DNA of 64,000 bases, taken from assembly GCF_036507355.1 (NCBI RefSeq), contig NZ_AP027877.1; one strand, given 5' to 3'. Source of the stretch: Escherichia coli (GTDB taxonomy: Bacteria > Pseudomonadota > Gammaproteobacteria > Enterobacterales > Enterobacteriaceae). The notes beneath the pieces are model-generated. The model was not told the origin of the DNA, searched no databases, and was given only the letters and a program-made list of their open reading frames with translations. The translations under genes were made by a program, and so were the position numbers. Numbering within the stretch: position 1 is the first letter of the stretch; every line of letters starts with the position of its first letter. Of this stretch, positions 1-8,034 are shown in pieces.

Positions 1-656
1 GCTATTTATCATTACTCGATAATACCGGTGAAATGCTGGTTGCTATAAATGACATGAATATTAGCAACGCTATTACAGCTGAATATCTCGCACAGCACCG
101 TGAATTTATTCAGAGGGCAAAGGTCATTGTCGCGGACTGTAATATCAGTGAAGAGGCACTGGCATGGATTCTGGATAATGCTGCCAACGTACCCGTATTT
201 GTCGATCCGGTTTCAGCGTGGAAATGTGTCAAAGTGCGCGACCGTCTAAATCAGATCCACACTCTGAAGCCAAACCGCCTTGAAGCGGAAACACTGAGTG
301 GGATTGCGCTGTCAGGGCGTGAAGATGTGGCAAAAGTTGCTGCCTGGTTCCATCAACATGGCCTGAACCGACTGGTATTGAGCATGGGCGGCGATGGCGT
401 TTATTACAGCGATATCAGCGGTGAAAGTGGCTGGTCTGCGCCGATCAAAACCAATGTTATTAATGTTACCGGAGCGGGCGATGCCATGATGGCGGGACTT
501 GCTTCGTGTTGGGTAGACGGAATGCCGTTTGCCGAATCTGTTCGTTTCGCACAGGGATGTTCGTCAATGGCGCTCTCCTGTGAATACACCAATAACCCCG
601 ATTTATCGATTGCCAACGTTATATCGTTAGTGGAGAACGCAGAATGTCTGAATTAA
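1..656 (+). CDS. psuK: pseudouridine kinase, PfkB family (partial; 5' end lies outside the window)
   Basis: Frame of ORF 33..656 stays open back to window position 1; ribokinase/PfkB-type C-terminal motif VTGAGDAMMAGL; 13-nt overlap with the following glycosidase gene; synteny with psuG/psuT. Confidence 0.85.
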   Translation, partial: YLSLLDNTGEMLVAINDMNISNAITAEYLAQHREFIQRAKVIVADCNISEEALAWILDNAANVPVFVDPVSAWKCVKVRDRLNQIHTLKPNRLEAETLSGIALSGREDVAKVAAWFHQHGLNRLVLSMGGDGVYYSDISGESGWSAPIKTNVINVTGAGDAMMAGLASCWVDGMPFAESVRFAQGCSSMALSCEYTNNPDLSIANVISLVENAECLN

Positions 657-1582
657 AAATTTCCCCTGAATTATTACAAATTTCCCCGGAAGTGCAGGAC
701 GCTTTAAAAAACAAAAAACCGGTTGTGGCGCTGGAATCGACCATTATTTCTCACGGGATGCCGTTCCCACAAAATGCCCAGACCGCAATTGAAGTTGAAG
801 AAACTATTCGTAAACAGGGCGCAGTACCTGCCACTATCGCCATTATTGGTGGCGTGATGAAAGTGGGTTTAAGCAAAGATGAAATTGAATTACTGGGTCG
901 TGAAGGGCATAACGTGACCAAAGTTAGTCGTCGCGATTTACCTTTTGTTGTTGCCGCCGGAAAAAATGGCGCAACCACTGTGGCTTCAACGATGATTATT
1001 GCGGCGCTTGCCGGAATTAAAGTATTTGCCACCGGGGGAATTGGTGGTGTTCATCGCGGGGCGGAACATACCTTCGATATTTCTGCCGATTTGCAAGAAC
1101 TGGCAAATACTAATGTCACCGTTGTTTGTGCCGGGGCGAAATCTATTCTCGATTTAGGATTAACCACTGAGTATTTAGAAACCTTCGGTGTGCCGTTAAT
1201 TGGCTATCAGACTAAAGCGCTGCCTGCGTTTTTCTGCCGCACCAGCCCGTTTGACGTCAGCATTCGTCTCGACAGCGCCAGCGAAATTGCCCGTGCAATG
1301 GCGGTGAAATGGCAAAGCGGGCTGAACGGTGGCCTCGTGGTAGCGAACCCGATCCCGGAACAGTTTGCTATGCCGGAACACACTATCAATGCGGCGATCG
1401 ATCAGGCGGTAGCTGAAGCTGAAGCGCAGGGTGTTATTGGTAAAGAAAGTACGCCATTCCTGCTGGCGCGCGTTGCTGAGCTGACCGGCGGTGACAGCCT
1501 GAAATTCAACATCCAGCTGGTGTTCAACAACGCCATTCTGGCGAGCGAAATTGCCAAAGAATATCAGCGTCTCGCGGGTTAA
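644..1582 (+). CDS. psuG: pseudouridine-5'-phosphate glycosidase
   Basis: 312-aa ORF, length and sequence match recalled E. coli YeiN/PsuG; overlaps kinase gene upstream (operon). Confidence 0.9.
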   Translation: MSELKISPELLQISPEVQDALKNKKPVVALESTIISHGMPFPQNAQTAIEVEETIRKQGAVPATIAIIGGVMKVGLSKDEIELLGREGHNVTKVSRRDLPFVVAAGKNGATTVASTMIIAALAGIKVFATGGIGGVHRGAEHTFDISADLQELANTNVTVVCAGAKSILDLGLTTEYLETFGVPLIGYQTKALPAFFCRTSPFDVSIRLDSASEIARAMAVKWQSGLNGGLVVANPIPEQFAMPEHTINAAIDQAVAEAEAQGVIGKESTPFLLARVAELTGGDSLKFNIQLVFNNAILASEIAKEYQRLAG

Positions 1583-1675
1583 TTTCTGACGGGCAGAAAG
1601 CCGTCGCCCGTACTGATCATACATACCGAAACCTGGCGCTGACGCCGGGTTTACTGGCATGAAGGGAAAATCATT

Positions 1676-2926
1676 ATGGATATAATGAGAAGTGTTGTGG
1701 GGATGGTGGTGTTACTGGCAATAGCATTTCTGTTGTCGGTAAATAAAAAGAGCATCAGTTTGCGCACGGTTGGAGCCGCACTGCTGCTGCAAATCGCTAT
1801 TGGTGGCATCATGCTCTATTTTCCGCCGGGAAAATGGGCAGTAGAACAGGCGGCATTAGGCGTTCATAAAGTGATGTCTTACAGTGATGCCGGTAGCGCC
1901 TTCATTTTTGGTTCGCTGGTTGGGCCGAAAATGGATGTCCTCTTTGACGGTGCGGGTTTTATCTTCGCCTTTCGCGTACTTCCGGCGATTATCTTCGTCA
2001 CTGCGCTCATTAGTCTGCTGTACTACATTGGCGTGATGGGGCTGCTGATTCGCATCCTTGGCAGCATTTTCCAGAAAGCCCTCAACATCAGCAAAATCGA
2101 ATCTTTTGTCGCAGTCACCACTATTTTCCTCGGGCAAAATGAGATCCCGGCGATCGTTAAACCGTTTATCGATCGCATGAATCGAAACGAGTTGTTTACC
2201 GCAATTTGTAGCGGGATGGCGTCCATTGCTGGTTCGATGATGATTGGTTATGCCGGAATGGGCGTACCAATTGACTACCTGTTAGCGGCATCGCTGATGG
2301 CGATCCCCGGCGGTATTTTGTTTGCACGAATTCTTAGTCCAGCAACCGAGCTTTCGCAGGTCACGTTTGAAAATCTGTCGTTCAGCGAAACGCCGCCAAA
2401 AAGCTTTATCGAAGCAGCGGCGAGCGGTGCGATGACCGGGCTGAAAATCGCCGCCGGTGTGGCGACGGTGGTCATGGCGTTTGTCGCAATTATTGCGCTG
2501 ATTAATGGCATTATTGGCGGAATTGGCGGCTGGTTTGGTTTTGCCAATGCCTCTCTGGAAAGTATTTTTGGCTATGTGCTGGCACCGCTGGCGTGGATCA
2601 TGGGTGTGGACTGGAGTGATGCCAACCTTGCGGGTAGCCTGATTGGGCAGAAACTGGCGATTAACGAATTCGTCGCTTACCTGAGTTTCTCCCCATACCT
2701 GCAAACGGGCGGCACGCTGGAAGTGAAAACCATTGCGATTATCTCCTTTGCGCTTTGTGGTTTTGCTAACTTTGGTTCTATCGGTGTTGTCGTTGGGGCA
2801 TTTTCGGCTATTTCGCCAAAACGTGCTCCGGAAATCGCCCAGCTTGGTTTACGGGCGCTGGCAGCAGCAACGCTTTCCAACCTGATGAGCGCGACCATTG
2901 CCGGGTTCTTTATTGGTTTAGCTTGA
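1676..2926 (+). CDS. psuT: nucleoside (pseudouridine) transporter, NupC/CNT family
   Basis: 416-aa polytopic membrane ORF; paralogous to nupX in this window; operon position after psuK-psuG. Confidence 0.85.
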   Translation: MDIMRSVVGMVVLLAIAFLLSVNKKSISLRTVGAALLLQIAIGGIMLYFPPGKWAVEQAALGVHKVMSYSDAGSAFIFGSLVGPKMDVLFDGAGFIFAFRVLPAIIFVTALISLLYYIGVMGLLIRILGSIFQKALNISKIESFVAVTTIFLGQNEIPAIVKPFIDRMNRNELFTAICSGMASIAGSMMIGYAGMGVPIDYLLAASLMAIPGGILFARILSPATELSQVTFENLSFSETPPKSFIEAAASGAMTGLKIAAGVATVVMAFVAIIALINGIIGGIGGWFGFANASLESIFGYVLAPLAWIMGVDWSDANLAGSLIGQKLAINEFVAYLSFSPYLQTGGTLEVKTIAIISFALCGFANFGSIGVVVGAFSAISPKRAPEIAQLGLRALAAATLSNLMSATIAGFFIGLA

Positions 2927-2993
2927 GTTTCATTGCCGGATGTACTCGCTTATTAAGCGTTGCATCCGGCAATCGCGCTATTGCAAATAATTT

Positions 2994-3653
2994 TTACTGC
3001 ATCATCCCGGAGAATTTATTCTCCGGGTCCATCTCCAGCGCCAGTCCTGACAACTGCTTTCTGTTTTTAATGAGATATCCTTTCTTGCTTTTAATTAATA
3101 AACCGTCGTGAATGAATTGCGCGAGAACATATAAAAGATGTCGATAAGAAACGCCTAAATACTCTGCCGCTTGCGTATGCTTTTCGTGATAAAGATCACC
3201 TTCTTGTGAGAGTAATATAAATGCTGCCAGGCGATTCACTAACGGAAATGATTGATTCTGAGTTAAAGAAACAATATTACGATAATTTTTATGACTTAAG
3301 GTGACGCAAAGTTTTCGTAAAAATAGGGTGTCGTTTAATAACAGCGGACGGTAATGTTTCATAGGGAGCGCAAGGCACCAACACTCTTCAATCGCCTGTA
3401 CTGCACGTGGTTCATGGTCTTTATCGATTAACTCAATCTCGCCAATAAAACAGGGGGCGGCAAAGAAATCGATCAGCGACACGCAACCATTAGCTAGCGT
3501 GGCGTAAAGCCTGGCGCGGCCTCGCGTCAGGTAAAACAGCCAGGACGGCTGTTGCCCTTCCTGCACAATGTAGTCACGCGCTAAAAAATGAAACAGCCGC
3601 GTATCGGCTGAAACATCCGTTAAAAAGCAATCCTTAAACGCGGATTCACTCAT
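2994..3653 (-). CDS. yeiL: CRP/FNR-family transcriptional regulator
   Basis: ORF 2994..3692; start moved to internal Met ([10 protein letters not shown]...) giving 219 aa as recalled for YeiL; cNMP-binding-like N-terminus and C-terminal HTH. Confidence 0.8.
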
Positions 3654-3821
3654 CAATTGCTGCTTAAGATCATTATTGTGGATTTCTTTCACGATGTTTA
3701 TCCGCTATGAGATTTCTCATATTTAGCATACGTACGCTGTTGTTAAGATTCAATCATCGGCCCGGTCGAATTTTCTTTGCTGTAGAAAAAATAACGCAAC
3801 TGGAAACAGAGGAAATAAACA

Positions 3822-4763
3822 ATGGAAAAGAGAAAAATTATTCTGGATTGTGATCCGGGTCATGATGATGCTATTGCAATGATGATGGCAGCGAAACATC
3901 CGGCAATAGATTTATTAGGCATCACTATTGTAGCGGGTAATCAGACGCTTGATAAAACATTAATTAATGGCCTGAATGTTTGCCAGAAACTGGAGATTAA
4001 TGTTCCGGTTTATGCGGGGATGCCGCAACCCATTATGCGTCAACAAATCGTTGCCGATAATATTCACGGTGAAACCGGACTGGATGGCCCGGTATTCGAG
4101 CCGCTGACCCGCCAGGCAGAAAGTACCCACGCGGTGAAATACATCATTGATACCCTGATGGCAAGCGATGGCGATATCACTCTGGTGCCGGTTGGTCCGT
4201 TGTCAAATATCGCGGTGGCAATGCGTATGCAATCCGCAATCCTGCCCAAAATCCGTGAAATTGTGCTAATGGGCGGCGCTTACGGTACAGGCAACTTCAC
4301 GCCATCTGCCGAGTTCAACATCTTTGCTGACCCGGAAGCCGCACGCGTGGTGTTCACCTCCGGCGTTCCATTAGTGATGATGGGCCTCGATCTTACCAAC
4401 CAGACCGTTTGCACCCCGGACGTAATTGTTCGGATGGAAAGGGCAGGCGGCCCTGCCGGAGAGCTATTCAGCGACATCATGAACTTCACTCTCAAAACGC
4501 AGTTCGAAAACTACGGCCTGGCTGGCGGCCCGGTGCACGACGCCACCTGCATCGGTTATCTGATTAACCCTGATGGCATTAAAACCCAGGAGATGTACGT
4601 CGAAGTGGACGTCAACAGTGGCCCTTGCTATGGGCGTACCGTCTGCGACGAGCTGGGCGTTCTTGGCAAGCCCGCTAATACCAAAGTCGGCATCACTATT
4701 GATACCGACTGGTTCTGGGGCTTAGTCGAAGAGTGCGTGCGCGGCTACATCAAAACCCATTAA
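3822..4763 (+). CDS. rihB: pyrimidine-specific ribonucleoside hydrolase
   Basis: 313-aa ORF beginning [17 protein letters not shown] (nucleoside hydrolase DxDxxxDD aspartate motif). Confidence 0.9.
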
Positions 4764-4909
4764 GTGTTGATAACAAGCCGGGTCAGTATCGCAAAATGCA
4801 GGCCCGGCTATTTCTGAGGGGCAGAAAGCCGTCGCCCAATATGACATGAAGAGATAATAACTATGGATGTCATGAGAAGTGTTCTGGGAATGGTGGTATT
4901 GCTGACGAT

Positions 4910-4918
4910 TGCGTTTTT
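4910..4918. repeat. target-site duplication (left copy) TGCGTTTTT
   Basis: Identical 9-mer directly flanks both IS1 ends (4910..4918 and 5687..5695). Confidence 0.8.
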
Positions 4919-4973
4919 GGTGATGCTGCCAACTTACTGATTTAGTGTATGATGGTGTTTTTGAGGTGCTCCA

Positions 4974-5249
4974 GTGGCTTCTGTTTCTATCAGCTGTCCC
5001 TCCTGTTCAGCTACTGACGGGGTGGTGCGTAACGGCAAAAGCACCGCCGGACATCAGCGCTATCTCTGCTCTCACTGCCGTAAAACATGGCAACTGCAGT
5101 TCACTTACACCGCTTCTCAACCCGGTACGCACCAGAAAATCATTGATATGGCCATGAATGGCGTTGGATGCCGGGCAACAGCCCGCATTATGGGCGTTGG
5201 CCTCAACACGATTTTACGTCACTTAAAAAACTCAGGCCGCAGTCGGTAA
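4974..5249 (+). CDS. insA: IS1 InsA (transposition inhibitor / N-terminal part of InsAB' transposase)
   Basis: 91-aa [26 protein letters not shown]..., recognised IS1 InsA zinc-finger/HTH protein; GTG start. Confidence 0.9.
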
Positions 5250-5671
5250 CCTCGCGCATACAGCCGGGCAGTGACGTCATCGTCTGCGCGGAAATGGACG
5301 AACAGTGGGGCTATGTCGGGGCTAAATCGCGCCAGCGCTGGCTGTTTTACGCGTATGACAGGCTCCGGAAGACGGTTGTTGCGCACGTATTCGGTGAACG
5401 CACGATGGCGACGCTGGGGCGTCTTATGAGCCTGCTGTCACCCTTTGACGTGGTGATATGGATGACGGATGGCTGGCCGCTGTATGAATCCCGCCTGAAG
5501 GGAAAGCTGCACGTAATCAGCAAGCGATATACGCAGCGAATTGAGCGGCATAACCTGAATCTGAGGCAGCACCTGGCACGGCTGGGACGGAAGTCGCTGT
5601 CGTTCTCAAAATCGGTGGAGCTGCATGACAAAGTCATCGGGCATTATCTGAACATAAAACACTATCAATAA
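5168..5671 (+). CDS. insB: IS1 InsB reading frame (transposase catalytic part, expressed by -1 frameshift from insA)
   Basis: 167-aa ORF in -1 frame overlapping the insA 3' end, typical IS1 organisation. Confidence 0.85.
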
Positions 5672-5686
5672 GTTGGAGTCATTACC

Positions 5687-5695
5687 TGCGTTTTT
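5687..5695. repeat. target-site duplication (right copy) TGCGTTTTT
   Basis: See left copy. Confidence 0.8.
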
Positions 5696-6945
5696 ACTGT
5701 CAGTAAACAAGAAGAAGATCAGCCTGCGTACCGTTGGCGCGGCGTTAGTGTTACAGGTTGTGATTGGCGGGATTATGCTTTGGTTACCGCCAGGGCGTTG
5801 GGTCGCTGAAAAAGTCGCTTTTGGCGTGCATAAAGTGATGGCGTACAGCGATGCAGGTAGCGCATTTATCTTCGGTTCGCTGGTCGGGCCGAAAATGGAC
5901 ACGCTGTTTGATGGCGCAGGATTTATCTTTGGTTTCAGGGTGTTACCGGCAATTATCTTCGTCACCGCGCTGGTGAGTATTCTCTATTACATCGGTGTGA
6001 TGGGGATCTTAATTCGCATTCTCGGCGGTATATTCCAGAAAGCATTAAATATCAGCAAGATCGAGTCATTCGTCGCGGTCACTACCATTTTCCTCGGGCA
6101 AAACGAAATTCCGGCGATCGTCAAACCCTTTATCGATCGTCTGAATCGCAATGAATTATTTACAGCGATTTGTAGTGGCATGGCCTCGATTGCTGGTTCG
6201 ACAATGATTGGTTACGCCGCACTGGGCGTGCCTGTGGAATATTTGCTGGCGGCATCGTTAATGGCGATCCCAGGCGGGATCTTGTTTGCCCGCCTGCTAA
6301 GCCCGGCTATGGAATCTTCGCAGGTTTCTTTTAATAACCTCTCTTTCACCGAAACACCGCCAAAAAGCATTATTGAAGCTGCCGCGACAGAGGCAATGAC
6401 CGGGCTGAAAATCGCCGCAGGTGTGGCGACAGTAGTGATGGCATTTGTCGCCATCATTGCGTTAATTAACGGTATTATCGGCGGCGTTGGCGGCTGGTTT
6501 GGTTTTGAACATGCCTCGCTGGAATCCATTTTAGGTTACCTGCTGGCCCCACTGGCGTGGGTGATGGGTGTTGACTGGAGTGATGCGAATCTTGCCGGGA
6601 GTTTGATTGGTCAGAAACTGGCAATAAATGAATTTGTCGCTTATCTCAATTTCTCACCCTATCTGCAAACGGCTGACAAGCTGGATGCTAAAACCGTGGC
6701 GATTATTTCCTTCGCGTTGTGCGGTTTCGCTAACTTTGGTTCTATCGGGGTGGTGGTGGGGGCGTTTTCTGCGGTTGCGCCACACCGTGCGCCGGAAATC
6801 GCCCAACTTGGTTTACGCGCGCTGGCGGCGGCGACACTTTCTAATCTGATGAGTGCCACCATTGCCGGGTTCTTTATTGGTTTAGCGTAGTGTGCGATTT
6901 ATGAGCCGGATAATATGCGGTCAAGCGTCGAATCCGGCAACATTG

Positions 6946-8034
6946 TTACACCATTGGCATTAATGAAAGCGCGTTATCGGCAGACAAGGTAGGGTTATTT
7001 AAGCTGCCGCTGGCGCGTGAAATTGCCGCGCAGGCCATCGCAAAACGGGCGCTGTCACGGAAATTGTTTCCTTCCAGAAAGCTATATACCAGGCCCGCCA
7101 TAAAACCATCGTCAGCACCAAAACTGTCTACTGTCGTATGCGCTGGTGCGGTCAGCAAAAATTGTTCTCCATCCTTTTCGCTGCAATAAACTGACTCATC
7201 GGGCAAATAAACAAACAGTTGCTGAACACCTTGCTGATGCAACGCATTCACTGCAGCATTACGGTCAGCATCGCTGGTGATCGCCTGTCCCCATAAAATT
7301 TCCAGCTCCGGTAAAGTGGGTTTCAGGGTGTGAATATGCGCCAGCCAGTGTTTGATTTTGCCCGCTTTGAATTCTGAAACGGTATCGACAAACACCGGGA
7401 TCTCATCAGCGAGGGTAAAGACCCATTCCAGCGCCTCGGCTGTCAGGTTGCAATCAGCCAGTACCACGCCCGCATGACGAAGTAAATCGCGCGACCCGTT
7501 CAGTAGTTGCGGTGTCAACTGTTCCAGCAGATGGGTATCGTTAATCGCCAGCACGGTTTGATCGTCTCGATTGGCAATTGCCAGATACGTCGATGTGCTT
7601 TGACCATGCAAACGAACGCAGCCGGAGACATTCACGCCGGCACGGCGCGTTTCTTCCAGGAGCATTTCGCCATAAAAGTCATCGCCAATCACTGAAAGCA
7701 AATGGACGTCGCGGCCTAACAGCGCCAGATTGTGGGCGATATTGCGTCCAACGCCGCCTGCCGAGCAATGAATTGTACCGGGATGAGAAGCCGATTGCGG
7801 GTAACGGATATCCGCCATCCCGCGAATATCCATATTGATTGTCCCCACCACTACGCAGTATTCCTGCTCGGTGAGAATGTAACCTTTGCCTTTAATCCGG
7901 CCTTTGCGCATTAAATCCATAATATGCGCCGCAACGCGCGAACGGCTGATTTGCAGCATGTCCGCAATTTCGTTCTGCTGAATCAGCGGGTTACGCCGTA
8001 AAATTGCAAGGATCTCCTTTTCCCGGTTATTCAT
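6946..8034 (-). CDS. yeiI: PfkB-family sugar/nucleoside kinase with N-terminal HTH domain
   Basis: 362-aa ORF; N-terminal HTH (EILAILRRNPLIQQNEIADMLQISRSRV) fused to ribokinase-like domain (GADD motif). Confidence 0.85.
   Translation of the reverse strand: MNNREKEILAILRRNPLIQQNEIADMLQISRSRVAAHIMDLMRKGRIKGKGYILTEQEYCVVVGTINMDIRGMADIRYPQSASHPGTIHCSAGGVGRNIAHNLALLGRDVHLLSVIGDDFYGEMLLEETRRAGVNVSGCVRLHGQSTSTYLAIANRDDQTVLAINDTHLLEQLTPQLLNGSRDLLRHAGVVLADCNLTAEALEWVFTLADEIPVFVDTVSEFKAGKIKHWLAHIHTLKPTLPELEILWGQAITSDADRNAAVNALHQQGVQQLFVYLPDESVYCSEKDGEQFLLTAPAHTTVDSFGADDGFMAGLVYSFLEGNNFRDSARFAMACAAISRASGSLNNPTLSADNALSLMPMV

Follow-up and report, generated by a model that had tools for sequence, protein, structure and literature searches.

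Protein-binding operator hairpins such as the MS2/Q-beta coat-protein operator, lambda boxB-N, the PyrR loop, and the RAT sites of BglG/LicT are about 20–25 nt long, with a G+C stem containing a lone unpaired purine, a few invariant loop bases, and a position upstream of the regulated cistron. The malE-malF REP, Rhodobacter puf, and pap hairpins are stable structures without a U tract, located at junctions between genes for soluble and membrane proteins, with an A/U/C-rich single-stranded stretch downstream. Very small riboswitch classes also exist, and the preQ1-I, guanidine-II (mini-ykkC), and HMP-PP (thiS) elements combine small size with conserved unpaired bases and an association with transporter genes.

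The stem-loop described here (hairpin 1) lies in the leaders of two paralogous Escherichia coli genes, psuT and nupX. It has all of the operator features listed above, but its sequence resembles none of these operators, it overlaps no Shine-Dalgarno (SD) sequence, start codon, or antiterminator, and nothing found points to a PyrR- or BglG-type partner. It is like the malE-malF, puf, and pap hairpins in its stable stem, gene junction, and neighboring single-stranded stretch, but it is not dispersed, its loop is conserved, and it is inherited with the downstream rather than the upstream gene. Minimal riboswitches are comparable in size, conserved unpaired bases, and transporter association; hairpin 1 differs from them in having no Rfam match, no competing platform, and a very narrow taxonomic range. 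As for Rho-independent attenuators, a second hairpin in the psuT leader (hairpin 2, 1629–1652) resembles a weak terminator between psuG and psuT, but has only three U residues, and hairpin 1 has neither a U tract nor an alternative pairing with hairpin 2.

Gene setting

The window, a stretch of 64,000 nt of E. coli DNA, begins inside psuK, followed by psuG (644–1582), psuT (1676–2926), yeiL (2994–3692, − strand), rihB (3822–4763), nupX (starting at 4863 and split by an IS1), and yeiI (6946–8034, − strand). The order agrees with that known for E. coli, fruBKA-psuK-psuG-psuT/yeiL/rihB-nupX/yeiI-nfo. In most genera a convergent yeiI comes directly after psuK-psuG-psuT, and yeiL-rihB-nupX is a separate module with varied neighborhoods; in E. 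coli this module separates psuT from yeiI as an insertion. Both PsuT and NupX belong to the CNT family of nucleoside transporters. NupX carries uridine and cytidine weakly (PMC11241209). The substrate of PsuT is inferred only. YeiL is of the CRP/FNR type. YeiI joins an HTH_24 winged-helix domain, at its N terminus, to a PfkB kinase close to PsuK, an architecture that recalls enzyme-repressor fusions. The function of YeiI is uncharacterized (PMC9061257).

In the window, nupX is broken behind codon 18 by an IS1 at 4919–5686, flanked by a 9-bp target duplication (TGCGTTTTT, 4910–4918 and 5687–5695). The junction is absent from all 5,426 complete E. coli genomes, so that the DNA may derive from a relative rich in IS1, for example Shigella. 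Escherichia sp. MOD1-EC7003 has an internal psuT deletion (locus L028, about 340–400), a metagenomic Escherichia contig a large nupX deletion (L076, about 8990), and strain 13C1065T a truncated rihB (L183, 1–104); in the last strain, hairpin 1 bears a stem-breaking C-to-A change. Judging from such cases, psuT, nupX, and rihB decay repeatedly in Escherichia. A REP-like imperfect palindrome, TTGCCGGATG...CATCCGGCAA, is found at 2929–2972, between the convergent psuT and yeiL.

The repeated 28-mer

A sequence-only reading of the window had pointed to a 28-nt motif shared by the psuT and nupX leaders, and both copies are where it placed them:

1582–1609, + strand: 28-mer copy 1, in the psuG-psuT intergenic region (exact match)
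4810–4837, + strand: 28-mer copy 2, in the rihB-nupX intergenic region (exact match)

The copies have the form ATTTCTGA(C/G)GGGCAGAAAGCCGTCGCCC and are identical at 27 of 28 bases, the sole difference being C1590/G4818. Copy 1 begins on the last base of the psuG stop codon (1582), with the psuT ATG (1676) 94 nt downstream; copy 2 is downstream of rihB, with the nupX ATG (4863) 53 nt further on. The ribosome-binding regions are also alike, as had been claimed, with SD regions CATGAAGGGAAAATCATTATGG (psuT) and CATGAAGAGATAATAACTATGG (nupX). No match to the 28-mer was found in 100 dinucleotide-preserving shuffles with up to three mismatches tolerated, and nearly all of the 5,426 complete E. coli genomes have two copies (median 2, maximum 3).

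The further claim that the coding sequences are far more diverged than the motif holds only in part. The psuT and nupX coding sequences are 78.8% identical (88% for the proteins), but they include 32 windows of 28 nt in which 27 or more bases match, as well as an exact run of 38, so a 27/28 match is unexceptional by that standard. At third codon positions, taken as a neutral standard, the two genes are just 52.5% identical, however, which makes the match exceptional for non-coding DNA.

The conserved core

Conservation in the upstream regions of other species, the check proposed for the motif, was examined by scanning one genome per species in the Enterobacterales. This yielded 33 psuG-psuT and 15 rihB-nupX loci, from genera including Escherichia, Citrobacter, Klebsiella, Enterobacter, Kosakonia, Buttiauxella, Salmonella, Pantoea, Ewingella, and Hafnia. 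A core, GGGCAGnnnGCnGTCGCCC, is found upstream of the transporter in these 33 and 15 loci, from Escherichia to Pantoea and Ewingella; these 48 orthologous leaders represent about 20 genera. The unit conserved in the 48 leaders is nnGGGCAGnnnGCnGTCGCCCn'n' (window 1589–1611 and 4817–4839) and not the 28-mer, which does not hold up as a functional unit: the core corresponds to its 3' two-thirds and runs 2 nt past its end, and its first 8 nt (ATTTCTGA) are common to Escherichia only. Overall, hairpin 1 spans the whole of the Enterobacteriaceae and extends into the Erwiniaceae and Yersiniaceae. Its distance from the ATG in nupX leaders ranges from 44 to 87 nt.

Mean pairwise identity at the 15 fixed core positions is 92.8%, compared to 92.4% for transporter codon positions 1 and 2. 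It is 40.7% at the four free loop positions, 32.4% over the 6 nt upstream of the core, and 52% at codon position 3, all of them near neutral. Because the fixed positions match codon positions 1 and 2 beside near-neutral loop positions and flanks, the comparison indicates purifying selection on the core in orthologous leaders. Five unpaired bases (A14, G19, C20, G22, and U23, in columns of alignment A2) are nearly invariant from Escherichia to Pantoea, while adjoining loop positions are randomized. In Hafnia, Izhakiella, and Pluralibacter the hairpin is kept with a different loop sequence.

Hairpin 1

The core forms the following structure in the two leaders:

1589–1611, + strand: hairpin 1, psuT copy (covariance model R1, 37.1 bits, E 2e-7; covariation; isolated fold −11.1 kcal/mol)
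4817–4839, + strand: hairpin 1, nupX copy (R1, 30.4 bits, E 1.2e-5; fold −7.3 kcal/mol)

In the psuT copy, the 5' arm ACGGGC (1589–1594) is followed by the unpaired A1595 and by G1596, which pairs with C1605; the loop is AAAGCCGT (1597–1604) and the 3' arm GCCCGT (1606–1611). The nupX copy holds GGGCAGAAAGCCGTCGCCC at 4819–4837. The general shape is two variable outer pairs, GGGC/GCCC, and then a G-C pair (G15-C24) across the unpaired A, closing a loop with fixed G19, C20, G22, and U23 and four free positions. Three registers were compared for the inner part; all are compatible with the data and none is decisive.

In the alignment of 48 leaders, 90.6–90.8% of cells are paired in hairpin 1, compared to 32–54% in slid controls, and none of 500 shuffles reached the observed values. 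The GGGC/GCCC stem was also predicted independently by RNAalifold. Five of the seven pairs are altered on both sides (C-G/U-A, A-U/G-C, G-C/U-A, and G-C/A-U); the change from G-C to U-A is seen in Enterobacter sichuanensis, and Hafnia has A-U in place of G-C. Covariation in the core reflects few independent events. The GACGG/CCGTC stem that had been suggested for the psuT copy fares differently, pairing in 65% of cells against 69% for the same partners slid by three columns. The position that differs between the copies, C1590/G4818, is a stem position of another helix (pair 9-29), not part of a loop. A TTTCTG/CAGAAA stem was also rejected; it is limited to Escherichia, and its 46% of paired cells equals slid controls.

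In K-12, the outer pair corresponding to C1590/G4818 is C-G upstream of psuT but T-A upstream of nupX, a difference expected of base pairing and not of a half-site read by one protein. In the window, this pair of the nupX copy (4818.4838) is a G.A mismatch; the G4818 allele is found in 442 of 5,430 matching E. coli records. For the two outer pairs of the psuT copy, the haplotypes are A-U/C-G (4,014 records), G.U/C-G (about 355–376), and G.U/U.G (1,040). These transitions stay paired, as G.U, in the sense-strand (+) RNA only.

Model R1 (matching 1586–1612 and 4814–4840) has just two matches in the window, with the next best at 14.7 bits, and both are on the + strand. In the other fetched loci its matches are confined to leaders, again always on the + strand. 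Conserved structure with compensatory changes on the transcribed strand, as looked for in a structured cis-regulatory RNA, is what was found, and these comparisons identify the core as an RNA stem-loop in the sense transcript. Of what had been proposed for the motif, a functional cis-element, possibly an RNA structure, is supported: the core is under purifying selection in the leaders of many genera and its stem covaries.

The rest of the psuT and nupX leaders

The remaining features of the two leaders are:

1612–1628, + strand: C/A-rich single-stranded linker, counterpart of the ATATCAGACATACCAAAA block (alignment A2, columns 31–50)
1629–1652, + strand: hairpin 2, AAACCTGGCG / loop CTGA / CGCCGGGTTT (folds)
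1662–1688, + strand: psuT translation initiation region, with SD GAAGGGA at 1662–1668 and ATG at 1676–1678
4776–4809, + strand: rihB-proximal hairpin, AGCCGGGTC...GGCCCGGCT (fold; spacers of other genera)
4840–4874, + strand: nupX translation initiation region (fold; gap relative to psuT)

The ATATCAGACATACCAAAA linker block is widely conserved in other genera, in psuT leaders and many nupX leaders. Hairpin 2 is absent from many nupX leaders; 93% of its cells are paired, and the commonest pair at columns 56-69 is a U.G wobble (29 sequences). It is terminator-like, yet its G+C stem is followed by only three U. In the E. coli nupX leader both linker and hairpin 2 are deleted, leaving a 44-column gap relative to psuT, although one E. 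coli strain (L002) retains part of the region. Taken with the SD region and ATCATTATGGAT, which is almost invariant in alignment A2 in the psuT initiation region, the alignments indicate that the entire leader (hairpin 1, C/A-rich linker, hairpin 2, SD region, and ATCATTATGGAT) is homologous between the paralogs.

Both initiation regions have folding potential. A weak A/U hairpin, TCATTAT / GGAT / ATAATGA (1671–1688), surrounds the psuT start codon in the predicted fold. The ATCATT before the start is nearly invariant across genera and can pair with codons 3–5 (ATAATGA), enclosing the AUG; this pairing is uncertain because codon 3 changes are uncompensated. In nupX, TATGACAT (4840–4847) pairs with ATGTCATG (4867–4874), enclosing the SD GAAGAGA (4848–4854) and the ATG (4863–4865). 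In several nupX leaders (CCAUAA), GCCC and its flank could pair perfectly with UUAUGG of the start region; psuT leaders do not conserve this pairing.

Most rihB-nupX spacers have a hairpin in the rihB-proximal position, with a sequence that varies by species; in the window, its tail ATTTCT is the start of 28-mer copy 2. In nupX-type leaders, hairpin 1 starts with an AUG formed by the outer pairs (window 4817–4819), and psuT leaders have none. This AUG opens short upstream frames, for example MGRKPSPNMT* in K-12, and in Buttiauxella sp. B2 (L031, 2444–3751) its frame runs in phase into nupX.

Searches and candidate identities

A cmscan of window positions 1–8000 against Rfam 15 (E ≤ 10) gave four weak matches, none of them at 1582–1690 or 4763–4880, and a scan for sigma-70 promoters and terminators found nothing at either spacer. 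Several known types of element were considered and rejected. Hairpin 1 runs into GTACTG or AATATG without a U tract, unlike an intrinsic terminator, and with two places in the 64-kb window and the low copy number per E. coli genome given above it is not a REP/BIME or other dispersed repeat. An attenuator, another function proposed for the motif, is not favored in its classical form: the terminator scan was negative, and in constrained folds antiterminator pairing of the 3' arm of hairpin 1 with the 5' arm of hairpin 2 amounts to 4–5 bp only and never competes. No conserved complement of the loop bases that survives in E. coli nupX was found by eye in the linker or SD region, as would be needed for a pseudoknot.

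The RfaH ops element, GGCGGTAGCGTG, is carried by the non-template strand of leaders in long, RfaH-dependent operons. By eye, AGCGGTCGCCCG matches it at 8 of 12 positions in most genera; the E. coli copies have GCCGTC, and the gene context is wrong. A small ORF or leader peptide on either strand was dismissed on several counts: G12, G15, and C27, which would be wobble positions, do not vary; no in-frame start is present in the psuT copies; and indels of 1, 2, and 11 nt follow hairpin 1. The SECIS GGUC loop, lambda boxB, PyrR loop, TruB T-arm, CRP-S site, and RybB/GcvB/OmrA targets were dismissed on sequence or context.

No real further copies of the core were found in the window, the fetched loci, the E. 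coli genomes, or among the metagenome matches listed. The metagenome scan, which used the degenerate core YGGGCAGNNNGCNGTCGCCCR, gave at least 122 matches. Among the 122 listed, 115 have no CNT gene downstream, and those adjoining one are in Escherichia-like contigs only. The non-CNT matches listed are in contigs of 49–80% G+C, mostly G+C-rich ones; the 10 lowest in G+C were examined, share only the pattern, and look like chance. A protein search for distant transporter homologs returned close relatives only. No description of hairpin 1 and no reporter or transcript data were found in the literature, and among the E. coli 5' and 3' ends of a published data set none lies near the psuT or nupX leaders, probably because the genes are barely expressed.

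Possible roles of hairpin 1

The evidence shows that hairpin 1 is real and under purifying selection, that its arms pair on the + strand, and that it goes with no other leaders than these two. It most probably lies inside polycistronic messages. The proposal preferred here, to which we give about an even chance, is that it is an inherited post-transcriptional leader element, read by a specific partner, that tunes the transporter cistron. It would belong to the 5' leader or intercistronic spacer of the CNT transporter cistron, and would have been present before the transporter gene and leader were duplicated into psuG-psuT and rihB-nupX. An association with the transporter cistron, rather than with an operon regulator, is indicated because the transporter is the only other component common to both modules. 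Hairpin 1 would be recognized sequence-specifically by a trans-acting partner, most likely a protein but possibly an RNA, and recognition would set the translation or stability of the transporter cistron apart from the upstream enzyme gene. From the comparative pattern we infer post-transcriptional action, a specific partner, and a direction of effect; the partner is suggested by the covarying stem together with unpaired bases conserved to the level of the codon positions that determine amino acids.

Reading by a partner has weak points. Because hairpin 1 overlaps neither the SD sequence nor the start codon and has no pairing that is mutually exclusive with hairpin 2, no route from binding to a change in expression is visible. 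The loop drift in Hafnia, Izhakiella, and Pluralibacter and the variable distance to the nupX ATG also appear to tell against it, and a loop that changes while the hairpin is kept fits a purely structural role. Such a role is the best of the alternatives, possible though on the unlikely side: a passive intercistronic stem-loop without a partner, acting as a 3'-exonuclease barrier that stabilizes the upstream enzyme message once the C/A-rich linker has been cut, or insulating the transporter ribosome-binding region from pairing with coding sequence upstream, and in both cases giving a fixed enzyme:transporter ratio. In both operons hairpin 1 lies between an enzyme gene and a membrane-transporter gene; its G+C-rich stem is stable and lacks a U tract, and a search for alternative pairing with the rest of the leader found none. 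A passive barrier would not, however, need the near-invariant A14, G19, C20, G22, and U23, and the separate hairpin directly after rihB in rihB-nupX spacers would make hairpin 1 redundant as a 3' stabilizer.

A more far-reaching version of partner reading seems decidedly unlikely. Here hairpin 1, alone or with the C/A-rich linker, would be the sensor of a new class of very small regulatory RNA, binding a pyrimidine nucleoside, a pseudouridine catabolite, or a dedicated RNA-binding protein (for example YeiI) and giving substrate-responsive control independent of the operon transcription factors. A small riboswitch in the strict sense, with hairpin 1 and perhaps the linker binding pseudouridine, uridine, cytidine, or a breakdown product, is very unlikely. 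It would account for a short hairpin with fixed unpaired bases before transporter genes in two operons with different predicted transcription factors. It is at odds with the lack of an Rfam match even at E ≤ 10, the small number of conserved unpaired bases, the narrow distribution, and the retention of hairpin 1 in E. coli nupX despite the loss of linker and hairpin 2. There is also no expression platform that competes with hairpin 1: when its 5' arm was forced to be single-stranded, hairpin 2 and the start-region fold were unchanged.

A regulator-binding site in DNA had been among the functions proposed for the motif, and candidate operators of other kinds are found near both modules. In the yeiL-rihB spacer there is a palindrome at 3706–3721, TATGAGATTTCTCATA (ATGAG-N4-CTCAT), which is nearly invariant from Escherichia to Pantoea and Hafnia, with its core GAGATTTCTCAT identical in all 16 aligned spacers; it is a likely operator of the CRP/FNR-type regulator YeiL. 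The psuK promoter region (the fruA-psuK spacer, upstream of the window; in K-12, L001 about 3950–4137) has four features conserved across genera: a pair of CRP-like boxes of the TGTG-N8-CACA type; a promoter-like pair, TTTACTTT / TACTAT; immediately downstream of it, two GAACAnnTGTTC palindromes in tandem; and a covarying hairpin (TGGCA...TGCCA) that abuts the SD sequence. The GAACAnnTGTTC palindromes are possibly operators for a repressor, with YeiI among the candidates.

Hairpin 1 as a double-stranded operator would be a GGGC-N11-GCCC site bound by YeiI, YeiL, or a global regulator, controlling an internal promoter or blocking elongation. The site is an inverted repeat, and putative DNA-binding proteins are encoded nearby, namely YeiL and YeiI, with yeiI convergent to psuT in most genera. 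Even so, this reading is very improbable. Neither spacer has a promoter-like site, and dyad symmetry is confined to the outer GGGC/GCCC, without extending to the inner bases that are conserved. The outer positions change on both sides so as to keep complementarity and differ between the copies of one genome, and the population variants, G.U-compatible as RNA, would be C/A mismatches in a palindrome comparison. The hairpin 1 core, moreover, resembles neither GAACAnnTGTTC, present twice upstream of psuK, nor TATGAGATTTCTCATA.

Finally, hairpin 1 might have no function and be a remnant of the duplication, its E. coli copies homogenized by gene conversion from one paralogous leader to the other; this is extremely improbable. 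Both Escherichia copies have the same bases at the free loop positions (AAA, C) and the same 8-nt 5' flank, all of which vary between genera. Gene conversion can, however, explain neither the same 15 positions kept in about 20 genera beside near-neutral flanks nor the compensatory changes. By this comparison a lack of function is contradicted for the core and could hold just for the 8 nt at the 5' end that are specific to Escherichia. Gene conversion or concerted evolution nonetheless probably accounts for some of the near-identity between the E. coli copies, suspected because both have a C at free loop position 1602/4830 (column 21) that is found in Escherichia only, and share the TTTCTGA flank; the simplest account would be a short conversion tract between the two leaders.

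Implications

The intergenic regions of E. coli K-12 have been searched repeatedly for structured RNAs. Hairpin 1, with 23 nt, belongs to no Rfam family, and no mention of it was found in the searchable literature; on the comparative evidence it is a previously undescribed conserved cis-acting mRNA leader structure. If it is only a structural spacer, it would be an ordinary feature. If it is a regulatory switch, it would explain uncoupled transporter and enzyme levels in the pseudouridine and ribonucleoside-hydrolase operons, and would be relevant to pseudouridine production strains in which psuG, psuK, and psuT are manipulated.
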